Shown piece by piece: positions 4,579 to 59,144 of a stretch of DNA of 64,000 bases (positions are counted from its first letter, which is position 1; each line of letters opens with the position of its first letter). The translations under genes and the position numbers were made by a program. Source of the DNA: Candidatus Fervidifonticultor sextus. Lineage in GTDB: Bacteria > Sysuimicrobiota > Sysuimicrobiia > Sysuimicrobiales > Humicultoraceae. The notes beneath the pieces were generated by a model. The model was given only the letters and a program-made list of their open reading frames with translations, ran no database searches and was not told the origin of the DNA. The stretch lies in assembly GCA_031459875.1 (NCBI GenBank), contig JAVKHQ010000005.1, forward strand, positions 53,181 through 117,180, written 5' to 3'.

Positions 4579-5094
4579 CTACGGCGCCGACATGCGCACG
4601 GGTACCGAGATGGCCACCGCTCCCGCCCGCTCGAAGTGCAGCGTCACGGCGAGCCGCTCCCCCTCTTTGAGGTCGCGCTTGAGTCCCAGCAGCATGATGT
4701 GGAGCCCACCCGGACGCAGCTGCGCCCGTCCGCGAGCAGGGACCACGATGGCCGGCACCTTGTGCATGCGACTCATGCCGCCCTCCATGCGCGTCTCATG
4801 GAGTTCCACCGCGGCGGCGACCCCGGCGTCGGCGCGCAACAGCCGGTCAGCCTGCGAGCCGGTGTTGTGAATGACCATGTAGATCGCCGAGGCGCCAGGT
4901 CCCATCTCCGTGCCTTTCCCATGGACACCGGCGGGTGCCGCGACGCCCGGCCGTGCCCAGGCCTTCTCGATCCTGATCGATGACGCAGGCGACGCGGCAT
5001 CGCCCGAGATGGTGGCGGCTCCGATAAACACGGCAGCGGCAACGAGGGGCGCACCCGAGAGCCACAGGTGCCTCATCTGACGTGACAGGTACAT
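4579..5094 (-). CDS. Copper chaperone PCu(A)C, copy 1
   Basis: AWAR, SAIYMVIHN, VELHET...MSRM, LRPGGLHIML; aaggag upstream. Confidence 0.92.
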   Translation of the reverse strand: MYLSRQMRHLWLSGAPLVAAAVFIGAATISGDAASPASSIRIEKAWARPGVAAPAGVHGKGTEMGPGASAIYMVIHNTGSQADRLLRADAGVAAAVELHETRMEGGMSRMHKVPAIVVPARGRAQLRPGGLHIMLLGLKRDLKEGERLAVTLHFERAGAVAISVPVRMSAP

Positions 5095-5148
5095 CTCTGG
5101 ATCACTCCTTTGCCAATCGGTCGCGACGCGAAGTCGGGCGTGTTGCAT

Positions 5149-5733
5149 CTAGTGCCTGAGCAGCTGACGGACGTCGTGTGCCACGTCGGCCGCGGTGGCC
5201 TCGTGGCTCACATTCAGACGCCAGCGTCCCTCCCGGTCGATGACGGGGACGTTCGTCGAGTGCGCTATGAGGTACCCCGCTGCGCTGTTGCGTACCGGGA
5301 CCTTCTGGAACGCGGCGCCGAAGAATCGGTAGGTCGCGGCCAACAGATGCGGGGGGCCTGTCAGACCTACGAACTCGGGGCTGAACAGACGGAGGTACCG
5401 GTCGAGGAACGCCGGGGTGTCAACCTCGGGGTCGAGCGTGATGAACACGAAGCGGACTCGCGCGGCGTCCGTCCCCAGTATCTTGGCGACGTCCCGGAAC
5501 ATCCCCAGGGTGAGCGGACAGACGTCCGGGCACCTGGTGTAGCCAAAGAAGACCAGGACGACGCGCCCCCGTTGCTCGGCGAGGTTGAACGGCCGCCCGT
5601 GCTGGTCGCTCAGCACGAGCCTCGGGACCGGGCGCGCAGGGTCGAGTTCGCGGGCTCGGAAGCTTGGGCGGTGGCACGCGGAGAGGAGCAGCACGGCCAA
5701 GCCGCTGGCGATCCATCTGATCCATCGGGCCAT
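5149..5733 (-). CDS. SCO1/SenC family lipoprotein, copy 1
   Basis: Lipobox LSAC, FGYTRCPDVCP, TLDPEVDTP, conserved His in IAHS. Confidence 0.93.
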   Translation of the reverse strand: MARWIRWIASGLAVLLLSACHRPSFRARELDPARPVPRLVLSDQHGRPFNLAEQRGRVVLVFFGYTRCPDVCPLTLGMFRDVAKILGTDAARVRFVFITLDPEVDTPAFLDRYLRLFSPEFVGLTGPPHLLAATYRFFGAAFQKVPVRNSAAGYLIAHSTNVPVIDREGRWRLNVSHEATAADVAHDVRQLLRH

Positions 5734-5828: not shown

Positions 5829-6344
5829 TTAGGCTGGGCGGTGGGCTCGAGGCGGAGGGTCCGGAACGGGGAGGGGGATGGGCATGAGGCCCGGCGAGAC
5901 CGGGCGGGCGACCCGTTCGGTCGGCGGTGGCGCTCCCGGCATCACTGTCGCTGGCGCCGTGGCGACGGCCAGGCCCGAGACGCTGAGGACCTGCGCGCCA
6001 TGGGCGGTCCCGGGAAGGACGGACACGACACGCGGCAGTTCAGAAATTCGTCGGCTGCCGTGCGGGGGCCACGCCGCGCTCTTCCCGTTCTCACCATGAT
6101 GTCCGGGGGATCCGCGCTGCCGGTCGTGGCCGTGGCGACGGTGGTGGGCGAGCGCGTCGGCGCGCTGCGCAGGCGTACCGCCGATCACCACGTGCAGGTG
6201 GTACGGGTCGCGCTCCACCGCCTGCGTGTCGGCGACCGGGACGATCAGTCGCAAGACCATCGCCGGCAACGCAACCGCGGCCACAACCAGGAACGGACCC
6301 GGACGGCTTGAGCGATCTGCCGGCGCCGCGCGACATGGGAACAT
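5829..6344 (-). CDS. His-rich putative leader protein ending VPDPPPR, copy 1
   Basis: Hydrophobic segment, ERDPYHLHVVIGGTP..ALAHH, C-terminal PDPPPR; paralogous to 32883-33401 and 35201-35680. Confidence 0.8.
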   Translation of the reverse strand: MFPCRAAPADRSSRPGPFLVVAAVALPAMVLRLIVPVADTQAVERDPYHLHVVIGGTPAQRADALAHHRRHGHDRQRGSPGHHGENGKSAAWPPHGSRRISELPRVVSVLPGTAHGAQVLSVSGLAVATAPATVMPGAPPPTERVARPVSPGLMPIPLPVPDPPPRAHRPA

Positions 6345-6405
6345 GCCTGGCCGGTGTTCGACAGTGGTAGGATGAAGTCCTCCCCCCTTCCAACCCGATG
6401 CAGAC

Positions 6406-6520
6406 ATGGACATCCGGACGACGGCCCGCGGCAAGCGCGATGGCACCATCGTGCGCCACCTGCAGCTCGCCCACAACGAGCGGGGTCCGCGGACCGGAAT
6501 GCCCCGGGCCCGCGTCCTGT
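6406..6520 (+). mobile_element. IS1634-family transposase N-terminal remnant
   Basis: MDIRTTARGKRDGTIVRHLQLAHNE..PRARVL resembles the IS1634 transposase N-terminus as I recall it; the resemblance stops after ~38 aa. Confidence 0.65.
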
Positions 6521-31426: not shown

Positions 31427-31657
31427 GACTCGTTGCCTCCCGGGTTCGACACAGAGGTCGAGGTTCCTGCACGCCTCCGACGGACCGCGGAGGCACGCCA
31501 ACCTTCGGGCCAGTGGACGCCCGCCAAGAGGGGGCCGCCACGGGCGCCGGCACCGGGGAGCATGATGTCGCTCTCCGGGACAGGGCCGTGGGTGATCCCG
31601 CGGGCGCGATTCCTCGGTTGGTCGGCGGGTGCGGGCCCGGCGCCGTCCGGCCGAAGG

Positions 31658-32167
31658 TCAGGGCGCCGCCATTCGCACCGGCACCCGGACCGCCACCGCC
31701 CCGGCCTGCTCGAAGTGCAGCGTCGCTGTGAACCGATCCCCCTCCCGAAGGTCGCGCTTGAGGCCAAGCAGCATGATGTGGAGGCCGCTTGGCCGCAGCG
31801 TCACCCGGCCGCCCGCGGGCACCACAATAGCCGGCAGCTTGTGCATGCGACTCATGCCGCCCTCCATGCGCGTCTCGTGGAGCTCCACGGCGGCGGCAAC
31901 GTCGGTCTCGGCACGCACCAGACGATCACCCCTCGGTCCGGTGTTGTGGATGGTCATGTAGATCGCCGACGTGCCGGGGCCCATGGCCATGGTGGTCCCG
32001 TGGGCACCGGCGGGAGCCGCGATGCCTGGCCGCGCCTAGGCGTCCTCGATGCGGATAGGCGAGGCCGGCGGCGCCGCTTCGCTGGCAGCGATGGCGGCCA
32101 TGAACACCACTGCGGTGAAGAGGGCCGTGCCTCGCAGCCACGAGATTCTCAAGCACATCAAGTCCAT
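31658..32167 (-). pseudogene. PCu(A)C copy 2 with in-frame TAG at 32036-32038
   Basis: IRIEDA*ARPG versus IRIEKAWARPG in copy 1; SD and signal peptide intact upstream. Confidence 0.8.
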
Positions 32168-32216
32168 ACTCATCACTCCTTTCCAGCCCGCACCAATGCC
32201 AAGTCGGGCGTCGAGC

Positions 32217-32792
32217 CTAGTGCCGCAACAGCTGCCGGATGTCGTGTACCAGGTCGTCCGCGGTGGCCTCGTGGCTCAGATTCAGACGCCAGCGGCCCTG
32301 CCGGTCGATGACGGCGATGTTCGCCGAGTGCGCCACGAGGTACCCCGCCGCGCTCTTGGGCACCGGGACCTTCTCGAACGCCGCGCCGAAGAATCGGTAC
32401 GTGGTGGTCAGTGCGTCCGGGGGGCCCGCCAGGCCCACGAACTCCGGATGGAACAGCCGCAGGTACCGGTCGAGGAACGCCGGCGTGTCGATTTCCTGGT
32501 CCACCGTGACGAATACGAAGCGAACCCGTGCGGCATCCGCCCCGAGCCTCTCGGCGACCTGGCGGAAGACCCCGAGTACGAGGGGGCAGACATCCGGGCA
32601 CCGGGTGTACCCGAAGAAGATCAGGACGACCCGACCCCGCTGCCCGGCCAGGTTGAACGGGTGCCCATGTTGGTCGGTGAGCGTGAGCGCCGGCACCGGA
32701 CGGGGAGGATCGAGCACGCGGCCCCGGAAGGTCGGGCGCTGGCAGGCTGAGACCAGCAGCACCAACAGGCCGACGGCGATCCATCTGGACAT
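32217..32792 (-). CDS. SCO1/SenC family lipoprotein, copy 2
   Basis: Lipobox VSAC, FGYTRCPDVCP, VAHS; close paralog of 5149-5733. Confidence 0.93.
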   Translation of the reverse strand: MSRWIAVGLLVLLVSACQRPTFRGRVLDPPRPVPALTLTDQHGHPFNLAGQRGRVVLIFFGYTRCPDVCPLVLGVFRQVAERLGADAARVRFVFVTVDQEIDTPAFLDRYLRLFHPEFVGLAGPPDALTTTYRFFGAAFEKVPVPKSAAGYLVAHSANIAVIDRQGRWRLNLSHEATADDLVHDIRQLLRH

Positions 32793-32882: not shown

Positions 32883-33401
32883 CTAGGCGAGAGGGTCTGG
32901 TCGGGGCGGGGGATCCGGGACGGGAATGGCGACCCGGGCGACGCGCGGCGGGGCCAGACCTGCGATCTGTCCGGTGGCCCGGGGGGCGGGGGGCCCCGCA
33001 GGCGCCGCCACCGTTGCGACCGACAGGCCGGTCGTGCTCAGGACCATCGCGCCCGAGGCAGTCCCGGGAAGGACCGACACGACGCGCGGGACTTGGGGGT
33101 CGCCCTGGGCCATTCGTTGGGTCTGCCCCCCGCCCGTCCAGTGTCGTCCCGGATGTCCGGCGGAGCCGTGCGGTCTGTCGTGGTCGTGGTGACGGTGGTG
33201 GGCGAGTGCTTCAGCGCGCTGCGCGGGGGTGCCGCCGATGACGAGATGCAGGTGGTAGGGATCGCGCTCCACCGCCTGCGTGTTGGCGATGGGCAGGATC
33301 AGCCGCGCGATGGTCACCAGCAACAGGCCCGTGCCCGCAGCCTGGCGTGGCGACGAGCGATCCCAGCGGGCGACCAATGTCGCGCGAGGCACGAGCATCA
33401 T
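32883..33401 (-). CDS. His-rich putative leader protein ending VPDPPPR, copy 2
   Basis: ERDPYHLHLVIGGTP..ALAHHRHHDH, VPDPPPRPDPLA; TATAAT at 33415-33420 on the minus strand. Confidence 0.8.
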   Translation of the reverse strand: MMLVPRATLVARWDRSSPRQAAGTGLLLVTIARLILPIANTQAVERDPYHLHLVIGGTPAQRAEALAHHRHHDHDRPHGSAGHPGRHWTGGGQTQRMAQGDPQVPRVVSVLPGTASGAMVLSTTGLSVATVAAPAGPPAPRATGQIAGLAPPRVARVAIPVPDPPPRPDPLA

Positions 33402-33530
33402 GCTGTACCCGCTCATTATAGTCGGTCGCCGCACCAGCGTGCAACGCACAGAGGGGAGGAGAGGGGCGGACGCACCCGGGGAAGTCACGTCCCGTCGCCG
33501 GGAGAGATCGCGGCAGGTCGCGTGAACTCG

Positions 33531-34445
33531 TTAGCGCGTCTTCAGGTAGCGGAGAAGCCCCAGCGCGCTCAGCCGCGTGGACATGATCGTCTCGAACCGG
33601 GCCACGCGGTCTGGCCCGTCGAGCCGGGCGGCTTCGACCGCCATCACGTGGCGCATCCGGCGCGCGATCGCGTCTTCATCAGCGCCGTCCTCCAGGGCCA
33701 CGCGGACCAGTTCCACCGCCGCGTGCAGGCGCTGCTGCAACTGCGCCAGCAGCTCCTCGACCCAGGTGTGCGCGCCGAAGTGCGTCAGCAGGAGCCGCCG
33801 CGCTCCAAGCCCCTGCAGGCGCCCGATGGTGGCATCCCACGCCGGGACGTCGAGTTCGGGGGGTGGGGTCGGGGGGCGGACGTAGCGGGATCCCGGCAGC
33901 GCCACGCCGGCCGCGTCCCCGGTGAAGAGGTCCCCGGAGGCGCGATCGAAGTAGACGACGTGATGACGGGCGTGGCCGGGGGTATCGAAGACGGCCAGCC
34001 GACGCGACCCCAGCAACACCTCCGCCCCCTCGCCGATGACGCGGATCCGCTCGTGGGGCACCGGGGCCACCTCGCCGAAGAGCCGCTCCAGGTCCGCGCC
34101 GTACAGCCGCCGGGCGCTGGCCATCAGCCGCGAGGGATCCGCCAGGTGGGGCGCGCCCACCGGGTGCACGTAGACCTCCAGATGCGGGAACCGACGCACG
34201 AGGACGCCGGTGGCGCCCGCATGGTCCAGGTGAATGTGGGTCACGGCCAGGGCCTGGAGGTCTTCGGGCTCCACCCCCGCGGCCCGCACGCTCTCCAGGA
34301 GGGTCTCCACGGTAGACGCCGGCCCGGTCTCGATCAGGGCCGGCCGGTCGCCCGTCAGCAGGTAGGCGCCGATGGCCTGCGGGGTCCCTTCGTAGTCGGT
34401 GTCAATCAGAACGAGATCGTCGGCCAGGCGTTCGATGCGCGGCAT
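33531..34445 (-). CDS. MBL-fold metallo-hydrolase
   Basis: THIHLDHAG, TPGHARHH, FTGDAAG, LTHFG. Confidence 0.92.
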   Translation of the reverse strand: MPRIERLADDLVLIDTDYEGTPQAIGAYLLTGDRPALIETGPASTVETLLESVRAAGVEPEDLQALAVTHIHLDHAGATGVLVRRFPHLEVYVHPVGAPHLADPSRLMASARRLYGADLERLFGEVAPVPHERIRVIGEGAEVLLGSRRLAVFDTPGHARHHVVYFDRASGDLFTGDAAGVALPGSRYVRPPTPPPELDVPAWDATIGRLQGLGARRLLLTHFGAHTWVEELLAQLQQRLHAAVELVRVALEDGADEDAIARRMRHVMAVEAARLDGPDRVARFETIMSTRLSALGLLRYLKTR

Positions 34446-34546
34446 GGGTCGTCCCCCGGTGAGCGTCCGGCATCACAATAACACAGCCGGATGTGGTATG
34501 CTCACCTGCGAGATTGCCACGCGAGCCTCAGGTGAGGGGTTGCGGC

Positions 34547-35197
34547 ATGTCACCAGGCGGCAAGGCTACCCGGGAGGCGAAGCGACAGCGCCGTGAGGCG
34601 GCGCTCGCGGCCCGGCGCGAAGAGCAGCGTCGGCTCCAGGCCCGGCGGCGACGGCGGGCGCTGGCCGTCTACGGGGGCATCGCCTTGATCGTGGTGGCCG
34701 GCGTGGGGTTGCTGACGCTCTCGGCGCTCCGCCCTCAGTCCAGCATCTTGGGTGCCATCGGCGGCTTCGGGAAGCCGTCTGGCCTGGAGGGGGTCCAGGT
34801 GTTTGCGGACCAGGGCGCGGCCCACATCACCCTGGGCCAGGCGCACCCTCCGTACAACTCCAATCCGCCCACCTCGGGATGGCACACTCCCTTCACCGCC
34901 CCCTGGGGAGTGCACCGCACGTCGATCGCGGACGAGATCATCGTCCACAACCTGGAGCACGGCGGCATCTGGATTTCATACAGGGACGCATCCGACACGG
35001 CGCTGGTGGAGAGGCTGGAAGCCCTGGTGTCCCGCTACCGCTCCAAGGTGATCCTGACGCCGCGGTCCAATAACGACAGCCGGATCGCCGTGGCCGCCTG
35101 GACGCGCCTGCTGAAACTCGACGAGTACGACGAGCGGAAGATCGTGGCCTTCATCAACGCCTTCAAGAACAAGGGACCGGAGATGGTCCCTGACTGA
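34547..35197 (+). CDS. DUF3105 membrane-anchored protein
   Basis: Basic N-terminus plus TM, YNSNPPTSGWH, VHNLEHG, AAW. Confidence 0.87.
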   Translation: MSPGGKATREAKRQRREAALAARREEQRRLQARRRRRALAVYGGIALIVVAGVGLLTLSALRPQSSILGAIGGFGKPSGLEGVQVFADQGAAHITLGQAHPPYNSNPPTSGWHTPFTAPWGVHRTSIADEIIVHNLEHGGIWISYRDASDTALVERLEALVSRYRSKVILTPRSNNDSRIAVAAWTRLLKLDEYDERKIVAFINAFKNKGPEMVPD

Positions 35198-35200
35198 GCG

Positions 35201-35680
35201 GTGGAGGACCGGCGGCTGATGGAGGCTGCACGTTGCGCCAGGGCGGCGGCCGTGGTCACGCGCCCGGTCCGAACGTCTCTGCTCCCCGTGTTCCTGGTCA
35301 TCGTCCTTCTTGGTGCTTTCGATCCGGGTGCGGGGGAGCGGGGTCCTTCGCACGCACACATCGTAATCGGTGGCACCCCGGACGAGCAGGCGCGAGCCCT
35401 CGCTGCCCATTTGCGGGGCGCGCACTCGTCGGCCACCTCCCACGCCTGGCATGTGCTCTTCCGGGCCTCCGACGAGGCGACAGACCACCCCCACGTGATC
35501 TCCATCAGCACGGGTGCGGTCGGTGCCTCCGTCCTCGGAGTCGGCGACGGGACCATGGTGGCCGCGCCCGCCAGCCGGGTGCCCCGCGCACCGCTGTCCG
35601 GCCGGGTTGTGCCCCTGCAGTCCGCGGCGCCGGCCGAAGCCGATCGGACCGTCCCTGATCCGCCTCCTCGCCTCACCTGA
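35201..35680 (+). CDS. His-rich putative leader protein ending VPDPPPR, copy 3
   Basis: TM segment, ERGPSHAHIVIGGTP..ALAAH, VPDPPPRLT; start may be 35219. Confidence 0.75.
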   Translation: MEDRRLMEAARCARAAAVVTRPVRTSLLPVFLVIVLLGAFDPGAGERGPSHAHIVIGGTPDEQARALAAHLRGAHSSATSHAWHVLFRASDEATDHPHVISISTGAVGASVLGVGDGTMVAAPASRVPRAPLSGRVVPLQSAAPAEADRTVPDPPPRLT

Positions 35681-35781
35681 ACCGTCCGGCTACACACATG
35701 GCACGCTGGCGGACGGGCATCGCCCCCGGAGGTCGTGGTCCCGCCTGCGGGTCGATGCCCAGATCATGGGAGGTGGGCACT

Positions 35782-36216
35782 GTGAGAAGGCAGCTCCTTG
35801 TGCTGGCCCTGTGCGTCCCCCTGACCCTGGGCGTCATCGCGCCAGCCGTTCTCGGTCACCAGACGAAGGTGGTGGGCGGCAAGTACCGGGTAATCGTGGG
35901 GTTTGTCCGGGAGCCCGCCTTCACCGATGAGCGCAACGGCCTGGACCTGATCGTGCGCCGGGTTGAAGACAATGCCCCCGTGGAGCACCTCGAACGCAGC
36001 CTCTCGGCCGAACTGATCGCCCCAGGAGGCCAGGGCAGGCGGGCGCTGCGGCTTCGGCCGCAGTTCGGCCGGCCCGGCTACTACACCGACGACTTCATCC
36101 TGACCCGTCCGGGTGTCTACCAGATCCGCGTGTGGGGCGTCATCGCTGACGTGCGCTTCGACGAGACGTTTGAGTCCCATGAGGTCAGGCCGCTCAGTGA
36201 GTTGCGGTTTCCGTAG
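35782..36216 (+). CDS. Secreted protein with predicted mature N-terminal His (copper-operon associated)
   Basis: ggaggt SD plus GTG, signal peptide then HQTKVVG; adjacent to copC. Confidence 0.75.
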   Translation: MRRQLLVLALCVPLTLGVIAPAVLGHQTKVVGGKYRVIVGFVREPAFTDERNGLDLIVRRVEDNAPVEHLERSLSAELIAPGGQGRRALRLRPQFGRPGYYTDDFILTRPGVYQIRVWGVIADVRFDETFESHEVRPLSELRFP

Positions 36217-36217
36217 C

Positions 36218-36676
36218 ATGCGGGGATCGTTTCCCGAGACTGTCCTGGTCGGCGCCGCCCTGGCCCTCCTGGGGGCCGGGGCGGCTGCCGCCCACGCCTA
36301 CCTCAGGGCCGCGGAGCCGGCCGAGGACAGCACGGTGGCGGTCGCCCCCAGCGAGGTTCGGCTTGTGTTCAGCGAACCCATCGAGGTCCGGTTCAGTACC
36401 TTCAAGGTCTATCGGGTGCCCGCTGATCCGGGGTGGGATCGGCGTCGCCTCAACGCGGCTGCAGGCGCCCTGGTCTCGGAGGTCCTTCGGCGTCGCGGTG
36501 ACGAAGCCGACCGGGCGGATGCCGGCCTGGCGACGGCCGCACGTACGACCACCACCGTGACGCTACGCCTGCGTCCCCATCTGGCTCCCGGCGCCTACGC
36601 GGTGATGTGGCGGGTGCTGTCGATCGACACGCATGTCACCCAGGGCTTCTACGTGTTTCGGATCAGACCGAACTGA
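36218..36676 (+). CDS. copC: CopC copper-binding protein
   Basis: AAA-HAYL..AEP, VRLVFSEP, YAVMWRVLSIDTH. Confidence 0.9.
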   Translation: MRGSFPETVLVGAALALLGAGAAAAHAYLRAAEPAEDSTVAVAPSEVRLVFSEPIEVRFSTFKVYRVPADPGWDRRRLNAAAGALVSEVLRRRGDEADRADAGLATAARTTTTVTLRLRPHLAPGAYAVMWRVLSIDTHVTQGFYVFRIRPN

Positions 36677-36697: not shown

Positions 36698-38401
36698 ATG
36701 GACGTCCTCGCCAGGACCCTTTCCTACCTCGGCGCGACCCTGTTGATTGGTGCAGGGATCTTCGCCTTCTGGATCGGCCCCGAGATGGCCCGCAGCGCGG
36801 CGCGTGGGCGGATCCGCCTCGGCGCGCTGGCGGGAGTCTGCCTGCTGCTGGTGGGGACCGCACTGGGGGTGATCCGGGGACTCCTCCAGGCGCTGGGCGA
36901 ACTGGGTCCGGCCATGGTACCGGCCTACCTTCTCGGGACCCGTCACGGCAACGCGGCCGCCGCCCGGATCGTGCTCGCCGTCCTGCTCGGGGTCATGGCG
37001 CCGGGCCGCGGCGGCCGACTCAGCAGGCCCGTCTTTCTGGGGCTCGCCGCCGGCCTGCTCGCGACTTTCAGCCTGACCAGCCACGCCGCCGGCCTCGGTC
37101 GGGTCTTCCCGATCCTGGCGGACCTGGTCCACCTTTCCGGCGCCGCCGTGTGGGCCGGCGTCGTGCTCTACCTGGCATGGGCTCCAGTCTGGGTGCCCAG
37201 CCTGCCGCAGGGCGCCCCCGGAGATTCTCTGAGCCAGGCCGTGCGGCAGACCTCCGCGATCGGACTGGCCTGCGTCCTCCTGCTCGTTGCGACCGGCGCC
37301 TACGCGGCCGCCCTGCACCTCTGGGGCCCCGTGGCGCTCTCGGCCACCCCGTACGGCCGGACCCTCGCGGGCAAACTCGCGGCCATCGCCCTGCTGCTGG
37401 CAATCGCTGCGGTGAACCGTTGGGTGCTCACTCCTGGTCTTGGGCGGCCCGGATTCCTCGGGGCGACTGGCCGCCTGCTGAAGGTCGAGTCGCTGGTTCT
37501 GGCCGCCGTCTTGTCCCTGACTGCCCTGCTCACCACGCGCCCGCTGCCCGAGCCGCCGGCCTCCGTGGAGGGCGTCGTGACCATCAATGAGGTGGCTGGC
37601 CCCTGGCTGGTGCGGGGGAGCCTGGCTCCGGCGATTCCCGACGGGCTCACCCTTGAGTTGACGGTCCGCCGCGCTGGCGGCGCCCTCCCGGTGGGCCCGA
37701 TGTCCGTGGAAGCCGTGATGACCATGCAGGGGCATCCGATGCCGCCGGTGGTCATCCGGCCGACGGCCACCGGTCCGGGAAGTTTCCGCGCCGCTGTCTC
37801 GCTGCCGATGGCTGGCGCGTGGGACCTCGCTATCGTCCTGCCGGGCGCCGTCCTCCGTGTTCCCGTCATGGCTCGCAGCGGTCCGGGGGGCGGCTCAGGG
37901 TGGGCTCCAGTGCTGCCAGGTCTCCTGCTGGCGGTCGCCGCCTCGGTCGTTGCGGGTGCCATGCTCGACCGGGCAGGCCTCCACACGCAGACAGGCCGGC
38001 TGGCCGCCCTCACAGGAGGCGCCCTGCTGGCGGTCGGCCTGACCTTCGCCGTCCGCGCCGCAGCCCCCGCCACCTCGCCGGGCGGGATCCCTGACCGGCA
38101 GAATCCCATCGCCCCGACGGCGGAGTCGCTGGCCGCCGGAGAACGCCTCTACCGGCAGCATTGCCAGGCCTGCCACGGGCTCACCGGAGCCGGCGACGGT
38201 CCGGCCGCCGCAGCGCTCCGCCCGCCGCCGGCGGACCTGCGGGTGCACATGGCGGCGGGGCACACCGACGGCCAGCTCTTCCACTGGATCAGCGAGGGCA
38301 TGCCCGGGACCGCCATGCCAGCCTTCAAGAATATCCTCTCCGAGGAGGACCGCTGGCATGTGTTGAACTTCATCAAATCGTTCGCCCTCAGCGATCGGTA
38401 A
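36698..38401 (+). CDS. copD: CopD fused to a YtkA-like domain and cytochrome c
   Basis: TSHA, VHL...VWAG, TPYGRTL..KL; TMQGHPM..LPMAGAW; CQACH with AMP axial Met. Confidence 0.85.
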   Translation: MDVLARTLSYLGATLLIGAGIFAFWIGPEMARSAARGRIRLGALAGVCLLLVGTALGVIRGLLQALGELGPAMVPAYLLGTRHGNAAAARIVLAVLLGVMAPGRGGRLSRPVFLGLAAGLLATFSLTSHAAGLGRVFPILADLVHLSGAAVWAGVVLYLAWAPVWVPSLPQGAPGDSLSQAVRQTSAIGLACVLLLVATGAYAAALHLWGPVALSATPYGRTLAGKLAAIALLLAIAAVNRWVLTPGLGRPGFLGATGRLLKVESLVLAAVLSLTALLTTRPLPEPPASVEGVVTINEVAGPWLVRGSLAPAIPDGLTLELTVRRAGGALPVGPMSVEAVMTMQGHPMPPVVIRPTATGPGSFRAAVSLPMAGAWDLAIVLPGAVLRVPVMARSGPGGGSGWAPVLPGLLLAVAASVVAGAMLDRAGLHTQTGRLAALTGGALLAVGLTFAVRAAAPATSPGGIPDRQNPIAPTAESLAAGERLYRQHCQACHGLTGAGDGPAAAALRPPPADLRVHMAAGHTDGQLFHWISEGMPGTAMPAFKNILSEEDRWHVLNFIKSFALSDR

Positions 38402-58718: not shown

Positions 58719-59144
58719 TTAGGCGGTGAACTCCCTGCCGGTCGCGGTCACGGTGAGCCGCCCGTGTTTGACGCCCCTGGTCGCCACCAGGCGGTCGGCG
58801 ATCTTCCTGACGTCGCGGGCCCGCCCGCGGACGGCCAGCACCTCGAGGCAGTTGCGGTGATCCAGGTGCACGTGCAGGGTGGAGATGATCAGGTGGGGAT
58901 GGTGGTGCTGGATCTCCGTGAGCAGGGCCTGGACGCCTCGCTTGTGGTGGTCGTAGACGAGGGTGATGGTGCCCGCAATCGGACGGTTCCCCCGCTCGGC
59001 CCGGTAGTCGACCAGCCGGCTGCGCACCATGTCGGCGACCGCGTGGGAGCGGTTGCGGTATCCCTTGGCCTTCGCCATGGCGTCGAGCTGGCCGACCAGA
59101 TCCGCCGCCATGGAGATGCTGAAGCGCTTCAGCGCCGGCTTCAT
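58719..59144 (-). CDS. nikR: Nickel-responsive regulator NikR
   Basis: RFSIS ribbon-helix-helix, NRS, YDHH, HVHLDH..CLE. Confidence 0.95.
   Translation of the reverse strand: MKPALKRFSISMAADLVGQLDAMAKAKGYRNRSHAVADMVRSRLVDYRAERGNRPIAGTITLVYDHHKRGVQALLTEIQHHHPHLIISTLHVHLDHRNCLEVLAVRGRARDVRKIADRLVATRGVKHGRLTVTATGREFTA

Follow-up and report, generated by a model that had tools for sequence, protein, structure and literature searches.

A histidine-based protein family with a PPPR tail as candidate copper-sensing arrest leaders ahead of copper operons in Candidatus Sysuimicrobiota

Introduction

What is the role of an unnamed protein that ends shortly after three prolines, and whose gene stands directly ahead of a copper operon? 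The question is raised by a stretch of 64,000 nucleotides from the genome of Candidatus Fervidifonticultor sextus (called the window below), which has a G+C content of 70%. The host belongs to an uncultured phylum, Ca. Sysuimicrobiota. The stretch occurs in 4 DNA sequencing runs, all of them from one hot-spring study, and in no listed RNA run. An original prediction, made from the DNA letters, took the ORF for the third copy of a leader whose proline codons pair with the next gene's Shine-Dalgarno sequence (SD), and proposed that one leader mechanism serves both copper-chaperone and copper-uptake operons.

To our knowledge, copper-sensing arrest leaders (CruR in 2022, CutF in 2023-25) have so far come from a single Pfam family with a Cys motif, mostly in Proteobacteria and Bacteroidota. 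Both named leaders carry DUF2946 (PF11162): CutF heads cutFOG in Rhodobacter capsulatus, and CruR is Bp2923 of Bordetella pertussis. The C-terminus of CutF is given as P109-EPEGPPPRL-118; copper control is lost when its PPP is changed to PAP, and it needs EF-P (10.1101/2025.02.05.636593). The SD of cutO is hidden by a stem-loop, and the proline motif alone causes no strong arrest in a LepB fusion (PMC9973294). For CruR, copper is reported to relieve the arrest, whereupon Rho terminates transcription (PMC9426467). The same source describes DUF2946 by CXXC and RAPP motifs at a 45-residue spacing and names Sco, PCuAC, YcnI and CopC genes among those of the operons that DUF2946 genes head. CruR arrest has been shown in vitro, and arrest at RAPP or RGPP resists EF-P (PMC12992588).

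Here we propose that the ORF in the window encodes a metal-sensing arrest leader comparable to CutF and CruR but from a new family based on His, and that its own last codons hide the SD of the next gene. We give this reading a probability of roughly 55%.

Results

The leader ORF and its operon

The ORF lies on the forward strand at 35201..35680. It encodes 159 amino acids if read from 35201 and 153 from the ATG at 35219. The ATG is the likeliest start: a GGAGG (35204-35208) lies 10 nt upstream, and the public gene call P0001 (153 aa) agrees. The protein ends in R-T-V-P-D-P-P-P-R-L-T, followed by a TGA stop codon (35678-35680). The predicted ending VPDPPPRLT is thus correct. The word leader is apt in position but not in size, for the product is a putatively exported protein of 153-159 residues and not a short peptide.

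Counted from the ATG, a hydrophobic segment covers residues 16-34 (35264..35320, forward strand), a putative signal peptide or membrane anchor. Conservation in the family alignment marks a putative metal site, P43-x-H45-x-H47...G51...L61..H64, at 35345..35410 on the same strand. The codons for Asp-Pro-Pro-Pro-Arg (gat ccg cct cct cgc, 35657..35671, forward strand) may form a motif at which the ribosome pauses, with three codons left to the stop; the prolines themselves are encoded by ccgcctcct at 35660-35668.

Between the stop codon and the next start lies an intergenic region of 101 nt (35681..35781). It contains two hairpins in the minimum-free-energy folds (35682-35716 and 35715-35760), whose arms are ccgtcc (35682-35687) with ggacgg (35711-35716), and gggcatcg (35715-35722) with cgatgccc (35753-35760). 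The SD of the downstream gene, gggaggtggg, follows at 35768..35777. The leader tail, the proline codons, the hairpin arms, the SD and the GTG start after it all lie where they had been placed originally.

The GTG opens the His1 gene (35782..36216, forward strand, 144 aa), the proposed first regulated gene. It is followed on the same strand by a CopC gene (36218..36676; Pfam CopC, 1.1e-18), whose ATG lies 1 nt past the His1 stop codon, by a gene for a fusion of CopD, a YtkA-like domain and cytochrome c (36698..38401; Pfam), and by a gene for a PD40 beta-propeller protein. The His1 protein has no match in Pfam or NCBIfam. It is a secreted-type beta-sandwich protein with an invariant His at the mature N-terminus (alignment A5). 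Its AF2 model has a pLDDT of 88.5, and the best PDB match is H. pylori CrdA (E 5.8e-5).

The whole 3.05-Mb assembly contains three paralogs of the leader, each of them within the window. Copies 1 and 2 lie on the reverse strand. Copy 1 (5829..6476), ending in ...VPDPPPRAHRPA, is upstream of SCO1 (5149-5733) and PCuAC (4579-5148). Copy 2 (32883..33488), ending in ...VPDPPPRPDPLA, is upstream of SCO1 (32217-32792) and PCuAC (31658-32035). Copy 3, the ORF discussed above, is the most divergent of the three, with 35-36% identity to the other two. Hence a divergent paralog does precede a different copper operon (His1, CopC and the CopD fusion instead of SCO1-PCuAC), as originally claimed.

A scan of 34300-36300 found no sigma-70-like promoter and no terminator on the forward strand. 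The promoter patterns covered were those of the sigma-70 consensus, so this counts for little. Both EF-P and Rho are encoded in the genome, Rho within the window at about 610-1893.

An unnamed family with a histidine motif

We built a profile from 16 members and ran it against 1.84 billion representative proteins. At E<=1e-3 it finds 148 proteins, 90 of them at E<=1e-10. Two giant repetitive proteins among the 148 were set aside. The other 146 are 74-218 amino acids long, many of them 125-160, and align with the profile from end to end. The family thus comprises about 146 clusters at 50% identity.

In an alignment of 139 sequences (A4, numbered as in P0001) the residues P43, H45, H47, G51, L61, H64, V93 and P148-150 are near-invariant. 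The metal-site positions among them (P43, H45, H47, G51, L61 and H64) are conserved to at least 90% in A4 and are invariant in the smaller alignment A2 of 16 sequences. The family has no conserved Cys, and the near-invariant candidate ligands are H45, H47 and H64. Judged by this conservation, the P-x-H-x-H...H motif is a putative metal site. Before the HxH, 87% of 135 members have a hydrophobic N-terminal segment (hydropathy of at least 1.6 in a window of 19). The N-terminus may therefore serve as a signal peptide or membrane anchor, and the protein would then be exported.

The second conserved feature is the C-terminal tail. PPP is present in 134/146 members and lies at most 12 residues from the C-terminus in 132. 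Exactly 3-4 residues follow it in 104 members. The tail reads PPPR in 116, and the preceding residue is D in 47, E in 30 and T in 17. From HxH to PPP the median distance is 106 residues (IQR 101-110, range 88-142, n=119). We rejected a sorting signal of the PEP-CTERM type because the motif has just 2-4 residues behind it and the C-terminus lacks a membrane helix.

This family carries no established name. Pfam has no match for the three copies in the window, and NCBIfam has none for the family. A cluster look-up returns its members as 'hypothetical protein' or without a name. The word-indexed protein search recovered only the query itself when given the single leader protein, and 6 proteins, none with a Pfam label, when given profile A4. 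A literature search, with the CutF-like list of PMC9973294 outside the comparison, found no description of an HxH/PPPR family.

Could the family be a branch of DUF2946? The PF11162 profile, whose Pfam cut-off is 23.7 bits, matches 0/16 members at E<=10 and 0/146 at E<=0.01; four members gave unrelated sub-threshold matches. In the genome that contains the window PF11162 yields two sub-threshold matches alone, both on another contig, and in the Ca. Sysuimicrobiota genomes it matches 0/94 at E<=1e-3. Plasmid pMOL30, searched for the known CutF-like genes czcI and silD, has no match to PF11162 or to A4 (the latter searched at E<=10). By the PF11162 profile and by its metal motif the leader family is separate from DUF2946, unnamed and His-based.

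The leader profile matches 23/94 Ca. Sysuimicrobiota genomes at E<=1e-5. The family occurs in 14/54 high-quality genomes and 14/31 genera of the phylum. A copy with 92% identity is found in the MAG of Candidatus Fervidifonticultor octavus, also of Ca. Sysuimicrobiota. Five metagenome contigs with 55-60% G+C encode members too; therefore the family is not limited to organisms as GC-rich as the host.

This conservation bears on the objection that the ORF is not translated and that its conserved features are an RNA element or a by-product of GC-richness. The ORF has a GC3 of 0.79, slightly under that of the adjoining genes, which would fit the objection. Against it, about 146 clusters at 50% identity have preserved both the reading frame and its amino-acid motifs over a G+C range of 55 to 70%, gene callers predict the ORF, and the folding energy of the RNA is unexceptional. 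We regard an untranslated ORF as hardly credible.

A translated protein need not be a sensor. It could be an ordinary accessory protein, rich in His and anchored in the membrane or secreted, which binds copper and, for example, captures it for SCO1/PCuAC or CopC/CopD or hands it over to them. In this case PPPR would be an interaction or stability motif, and pairing between the last codons and the next SD would amount to plain translational coupling, with no metal-sensing pause. Family members of 125-190 residues with conserved motifs over the full length speak for such a protein, and so do the His-rich linkers after the third His in many members.

The AF2 model of the leader, computed from the alignment, has a mean pLDDT of 70. 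In it residues 16-34 are helical, 45-50 (with the HxH) form a strand, 54-73 a second helix and 92-97 a second strand, followed by coil. The strand-helix-strand core reaches pLDDT 76-90 in parts, and the C-terminus is modelled with high confidence, again in favour of an accessory protein. A stable protein with a function of its own would fit both the partly ordered model and a size above that of typical leaders. Foldseek of the model against the PDB returned nothing at E<=0.001, all Atlas structure matches have a TM below 0.4, and the Atlas model has a pLDDT of 0.48. The lack of a structural relative in the PDB and the low score of the Atlas model count against an accessory protein.

So does the pattern of substitutions. 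Between L003 and L005, close orthologs with 92% identity, 13 codon differences are nonsynonymous and 5 synonymous. Outside the motifs this comes near to neutral evolution, so that constraint acts mainly on the motifs. The fixed distance of 3-4 residues between PPP and the stop codon in 104/146 members is hard to square with a binding motif. Finally, the synonymous sites of the tail favour pairing with the SD (see below), which also counts against it. On balance we consider the accessory protein unlikely, although it is the main rival of the sensor.

Copper genes follow the leader

Gene neighbourhoods were surveyed at 27 loci in Ca. Sysuimicrobiota genomes. In 25/27 the next gene is copper-related (SCO1, with or without PCuAC, CopC, CopD or His1), and in 25/27 the leader meets a same-strand metal-homeostasis gene less than 1000 nt downstream. 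The next gene encodes a His1-family protein at 13 loci (followed by CopC in 10 and by CopD in 1), SCO1 and then PCuAC at seven (VKOR comes next in two), CopC at three and CopD at two. One of the other two loci meets the contig end before any next gene, and the other (L050) holds a degenerate leader copy without the PPP tail. The spacer between leader and next gene is 32-219 nt long, mostly about 76-110 nt.

Upstream, the neighbours differ from locus to locus: MBL, DUF3105, ABC ATPase, methylase, Clp_N or none. Since these genes are unrelated, the conserved unit starts at the leader. At L005 and L023 the His1 gene is absent, and CopC comes directly after the same leader and spacer. CopC is also downstream at 3/5 of the lower-GC metagenome loci; the other two contigs end too early.

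In line with the original prediction, one leader family precedes both chaperone operons (SCO1-PCuAC) and operons of uptake type (His1/CopC/CopD). One leader type ahead of both kinds of operon is already published for DUF2946 (PMC9426467).

Predicted pairing of the leader tail with the next SD

How could the leader act on the next gene? The proline codons of copy 3 had been predicted to pair with the SD. The proposed 9-bp register (35660-35668 with 35768-35776) exists on paper, but it has a pair probability of only 0.01 when the ensemble is predicted. Another helix is favoured. Here the SD (35768-35777) pairs with 35667-35677, that is, with the last two bases of the third proline codon and the Arg-Leu-Thr codons, and 35764-35766 pairs with the stop codon (35678-35680). 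The whole helix has probabilities of 0.74-0.98. The predicted anti-SD thus covers 35667..35680 on the forward strand, from the end of Pro150 through the stop.

The stability of the fold is not unusual. The region 35645-35790 has a z-score of +0.24, and 114/200 dinucleotide shuffles fold as well. The spacer alone (35681-35781) has z=+0.51 against shuffles. Hence the two intergenic hairpins, which had been noticed correctly, are present in the minimum-free-energy fold but carry no statistical weight.

Is the pairing more than a property of proline codons? We recoded the tail synonymously and compared its pairing with the SD. For copy 3 alone the result is marginal: the shares of synonymous recodings that pair as well are 0.05 and 0.10. 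At 18 of the 27 loci the SD pairs with the tail (three codons before PPP through the stop) at a probability of 0.5 or more, and in 9 the SD pairs elsewhere. At the first 16 loci the observed pairing is 0.77, compared with 0.39 for recoding by host codon usage (p=1.5e-5) and 0.45 for uniform synonymous recoding (p=1e-4). The other tests used the uniform recoding. The second, independent set of 11 loci shows 0.39 against 0.29, which is not significant alone (p=0.23). All 27 loci together have an observed mean of 0.62 against 0.39 (Wilcoxon p=6e-4). With the close kin L004, L005, L035, L041, L044 and L047 left out, the 21 non-redundant loci give 0.56 against 0.34 (p=0.0016).

Tail and SD were also compared locus by locus. 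A tail forms a stronger duplex with its cognate SD than with a non-cognate one (permutation p=0.002 over all 16 loci and 0.011 over 13 non-redundant loci). The choice of proline codons follows the SD variant: L007, for example, combines GGGGGG and CCCCCC, and L010 combines GUGGAGGUG and CACCUCCAC. The downstream start of L012 is doubtful, as a stop follows after 10 codons in frame.

There is thus a predicted tendency for the terminal codons of the leader to form pairs with the SD downstream. The null expectation is high as well: recoded tails still pair at about 0.39 because any PPP run is CCN-rich, and much of the complementarity is a plain consequence of proline codons being CCN. Codon usage allows another explanation. 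CCTCC lies inside the PPP codons at 11/16 loci compared with 50/214 PPP triplets genome-wide, and CCU makes up 5.5% of the proline codons in this genome. The enrichment of CCU and CCA could result from slowing at rare codons instead of from pairing. PPP itself is not rare in the genome, with 214 triplets in 1333 long ORFs.

Constrained folding indicates how a ribosome on the leader may change the SD of copy 3. In the free mRNA the SD has an unpaired probability of 0.01. With a ribosome on Pro149 (35651-35678 masked) the value rises to 0.50. With a ribosome at the stop codon (35666-35693 masked) it reaches 0.25 only, because the proline codons then pair with the SD in the 9-bp register. We rejected coupling by termination and reinitiation, since 101 nt separate the stop from the start.

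An effect on transcription is the other conceivable output. In attenuation of the CruR type, a ribosome paused on the proline codons would hide a C-rich Rho-loading site at the 3' end of the leader, and after its release Rho would terminate transcription before the copper genes. This is the mode reported for CruR, likewise upstream of a copper-uptake operon (PMC9426467). The end of the leader has more C than G, with a GC skew of -0.29 at 35620-35697 and of -0.22 at 35646-35723. Yet a high degree of structure is predicted for the spacer (-43 kcal/mol over 101 nt), whereas Rho sites are unstructured, the C-richness is largely a product of the proline codons, and a sequestered SD points to translational control. 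As the main output we consider Rho-dependent termination quite improbable, and we keep it in view because the genome encodes both EF-P and Rho and because C exceeds G over 35620-35723.

Discussion

A model of the proposed mechanism

For the reading that we prefer, a copper-sensing arrest leader, the parts could work together as follows. Through its hydrophobic N-terminus the nascent chain would be directed to the membrane, and the P-x-H-x-H...H motif would thereby lie outside while the tail is still being translated. The ribosome would pause on Asp-Pro-Pro-Pro, three codons ahead of the stop. In free mRNA the SD of the next gene would be held in the helix with the last codons of the leader. 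A ribosome held on the proline codons would cover the anti-SD stretch and leave the SD free; a ribosome that runs through to termination would let the helix re-form. Copper on the exported His motif would alter the length of the pause.

The direction of the response could be that of CruR or that of CutF. With CruR polarity the apo form would pause and expression would be on, and copper-driven folding would pull the chain out of the ribosome and turn expression off. We weakly favour this polarity (about 55:45), because the cargo serves to acquire copper and to assemble cuproenzymes (SCO1/PCuAC, His1/CopC/CopD).

Relation to known leaders

The closest parallel is CutF. Both CutF and the present protein are small proteins that head a copper operon. 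CutF is exported and has its metal motif outside the membrane, and the same probably holds here. Both end in an xPPPRx-stop tail, which is GPPPRL in CutF; the PPPRL end attributed to CutF in the original prediction is right (EPEGPPPRL, 10.1101/2025.02.05.636593). The downstream SD of CutF lies in an RNA structure that a pause is proposed to unmask, and the like is predicted here. The differences are just as clear. Our family has no PF11162 match, and it carries the His-only P-x-H-x-H...H motif where CutF has CxxxC. About 106 residues separate its metal motif from PPP. Its cargo is SCO1/PCuAC or His1/CopC/CopD and not a multicopper oxidase, and its anti-SD lies in the last codons of the leader instead of in an intergenic stem-loop. 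It comes from an uncultured phylum, where the leader is known from sequence alone.

CruR resembles the present protein as the product of an upstream ORF that heads a copper-acquisition operon. The operon types of the CruR family include Sco, PCuAC and CopC (PMC9426467), the intergenic spacer is long, and there is a region with more C than G at the 3' end. Unlike CruR, our family has neither CXXC nor RAPP, and its median HxH-PPP distance of 106 residues compares with 45 +/- 2 for the spacing in DUF2946. The DUF2946 logo has RAPP; the tail here is [D/E]PPPR without RAPP and thus of the type found in CutF. Further reported properties of CruR also differ: EF-P does not overcome its RAPP arrest (PMC12992588), its output is Rho-dependent termination, and its signal peptide is dispensable. 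Compared with the RAPP-like arrest peptides in general (the class of ApdA, ApdP and SecM in PMC12992588), Arg follows the prolines here and D, E or T precedes them.

SecM-secA, MifM-yidC2 and VemP-secDF2 share the general design. As summarized in 10.1101/2025.02.05.636593, an exported nascent chain carries an arrest motif at its C-terminus, the stalled ribosome causes the structure around the hidden downstream SD to melt, and release by a pulling force is proposed. Those leaders monitor the secretion machinery and not a metal, have other arrest motifs and precede genes for translocation factors.

Small proteins ahead of metal operons are known beyond these cases, among them CzcI (PF28244) and the 'CutF-like' clusters (PMC9973294). 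CzcI, whose cluster appeared at rank 12 with a score of 0.94 in an Atlas feature search (a lead only), is described there as lacking a Pro motif. To enter the CutF-like set, a protein had to be under 150 aa, to have PP among its final 15 residues as well as a signal peptide, and to be followed by a gene on the same strand (PMC9973294). The 132 members of our family with PPP in the last 12 residues fall within the proline filter. With respect to length the family straddles the limit at 74-218 aa, and the window copy has 153 aa from the ATG at 35219, figures that depend on uncertain starts. In the CutF-like set PCuAC is a frequent neighbour, and two His-only clusters adjoin HupE/UreJ genes, in contrast to SCO1 or CopC here; Sco1, SenC, CopC and CopD do not occur in the main text of PMC9973294.

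Is the family, then, an independent invention, or a relative of CutF and CruR that has diverged beyond recognition? On this reading it would be a His-based nascent-chain copper sensor of uncultured lineages (Ca. Sysuimicrobiota and lower-GC relatives). The polyproline pause codons and the three codons after them would form two alternative anti-SD registers, and the SD would be exposed only while a ribosome is held on the prolines, mere termination being insufficient. We hold this reading tentatively, at somewhat less than even odds.

Implications

The gain in understanding is moderate, as concept and operon types alike have been published before and our case is built from sequence and prediction. 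Nevertheless, a His-based family without detectable sequence relation to DUF2946 stands ahead of like operons (Sco, PCuAC, CopC/CopD). If it is indeed a second family of copper-sensing leaders, then the arrest-leader principle is more general than DUF2946, and the two families would offer a natural contrast for how metal binding on the outside reaches the peptidyl-transferase centre. The proposal also provides a testable annotation for about 146 clusters of 'hypothetical protein' and for the unnamed beta-sandwich family with an N-terminal His encoded behind them. If the family arose independently or has diverged so far, metal-sensing arrest leaders would be a recurrent, convergent solution across bacterial phyla and not the property of one protein family.

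Upstream genes and outlying family members

Leader copy 3 (35201-35680, +) follows closely on a DUF3105 gene (34493-35197, +). The gap from the end of this gene is 3 nt to the GTG start at 35201 and 21 nt to the ATG at 35219; hence, copy 3 may be co-transcribed with the DUF3105 gene. Other leader loci have different genes upstream, encoding MBL, ABC ATPase, RsmI-type methylase or Clp_N proteins.

One family member (locus L050, G074:C46) keeps the HxH...H part. It has lost the PPPR tail and ends in ...VVCQLTMME. The sequence there extends 1.4 kb downstream and contains no copper gene within that distance. L050 may be a decaying leader copy. In the window, a six-frame search returned a fourth PDPPP string (59096-59110, +). 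It does not belong to the family; it lies in a different reading frame and lacks an HxH motif.

Genes downstream of the leaders

In the PCuAC region behind leader copy 2 (31600-32216, -), the translation of one frame contains a stop codon. At two loci from one genus (L044 and L047), a gene of the vitamin K epoxide reductase family (VKOR) follows the leader, SCO1 and PCuAC genes. A role in re-reducing the SCO1 thiols would fit this VKOR gene.

Downstream of copy 3, CopD and a YtkA-like domain are fused in a single ORF of 567 aa (36698-38401, +), with cytochrome c as the C-terminal domain. Locus L012 has this architecture too.

The first gene after copy 3, His1 (35782-36216, +), belongs to an unnamed family of secreted beta-sandwich proteins, which has no match in Pfam or NCBIfam. 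Relatives are found at further leader loci (L007, L010, L013, L014, L018, L035, L038, L041, L042, L045 and L046). The family comprises a short, soluble form of about 140-150 aa and a long form of about 180-220 aa with a membrane helix at the C-terminus. An invariant His directly after the AxA site forms the mature N-terminus. The best PDB match of the AlphaFold2 model (pLDDT 88.5) is CrdA of H. pylori (E 5.8e-5, TM 0.49/0.63), and the copper proteins P19/FtrA are also among the best matches. His1, putatively copper-binding, is likely a partner of CopC/CopD.

In the sister species Ca. Fervidifonticultor octavus (loci L005 and L023), comparison with window positions 35681-36217 shows that the His1 gene is absent. 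There, CopC directly follows the same leader and spacer as in copy 3, with an unchanged tail and Shine-Dalgarno sequence. This amounts to a naturally occurring exchange of the putative target gene of the leader.
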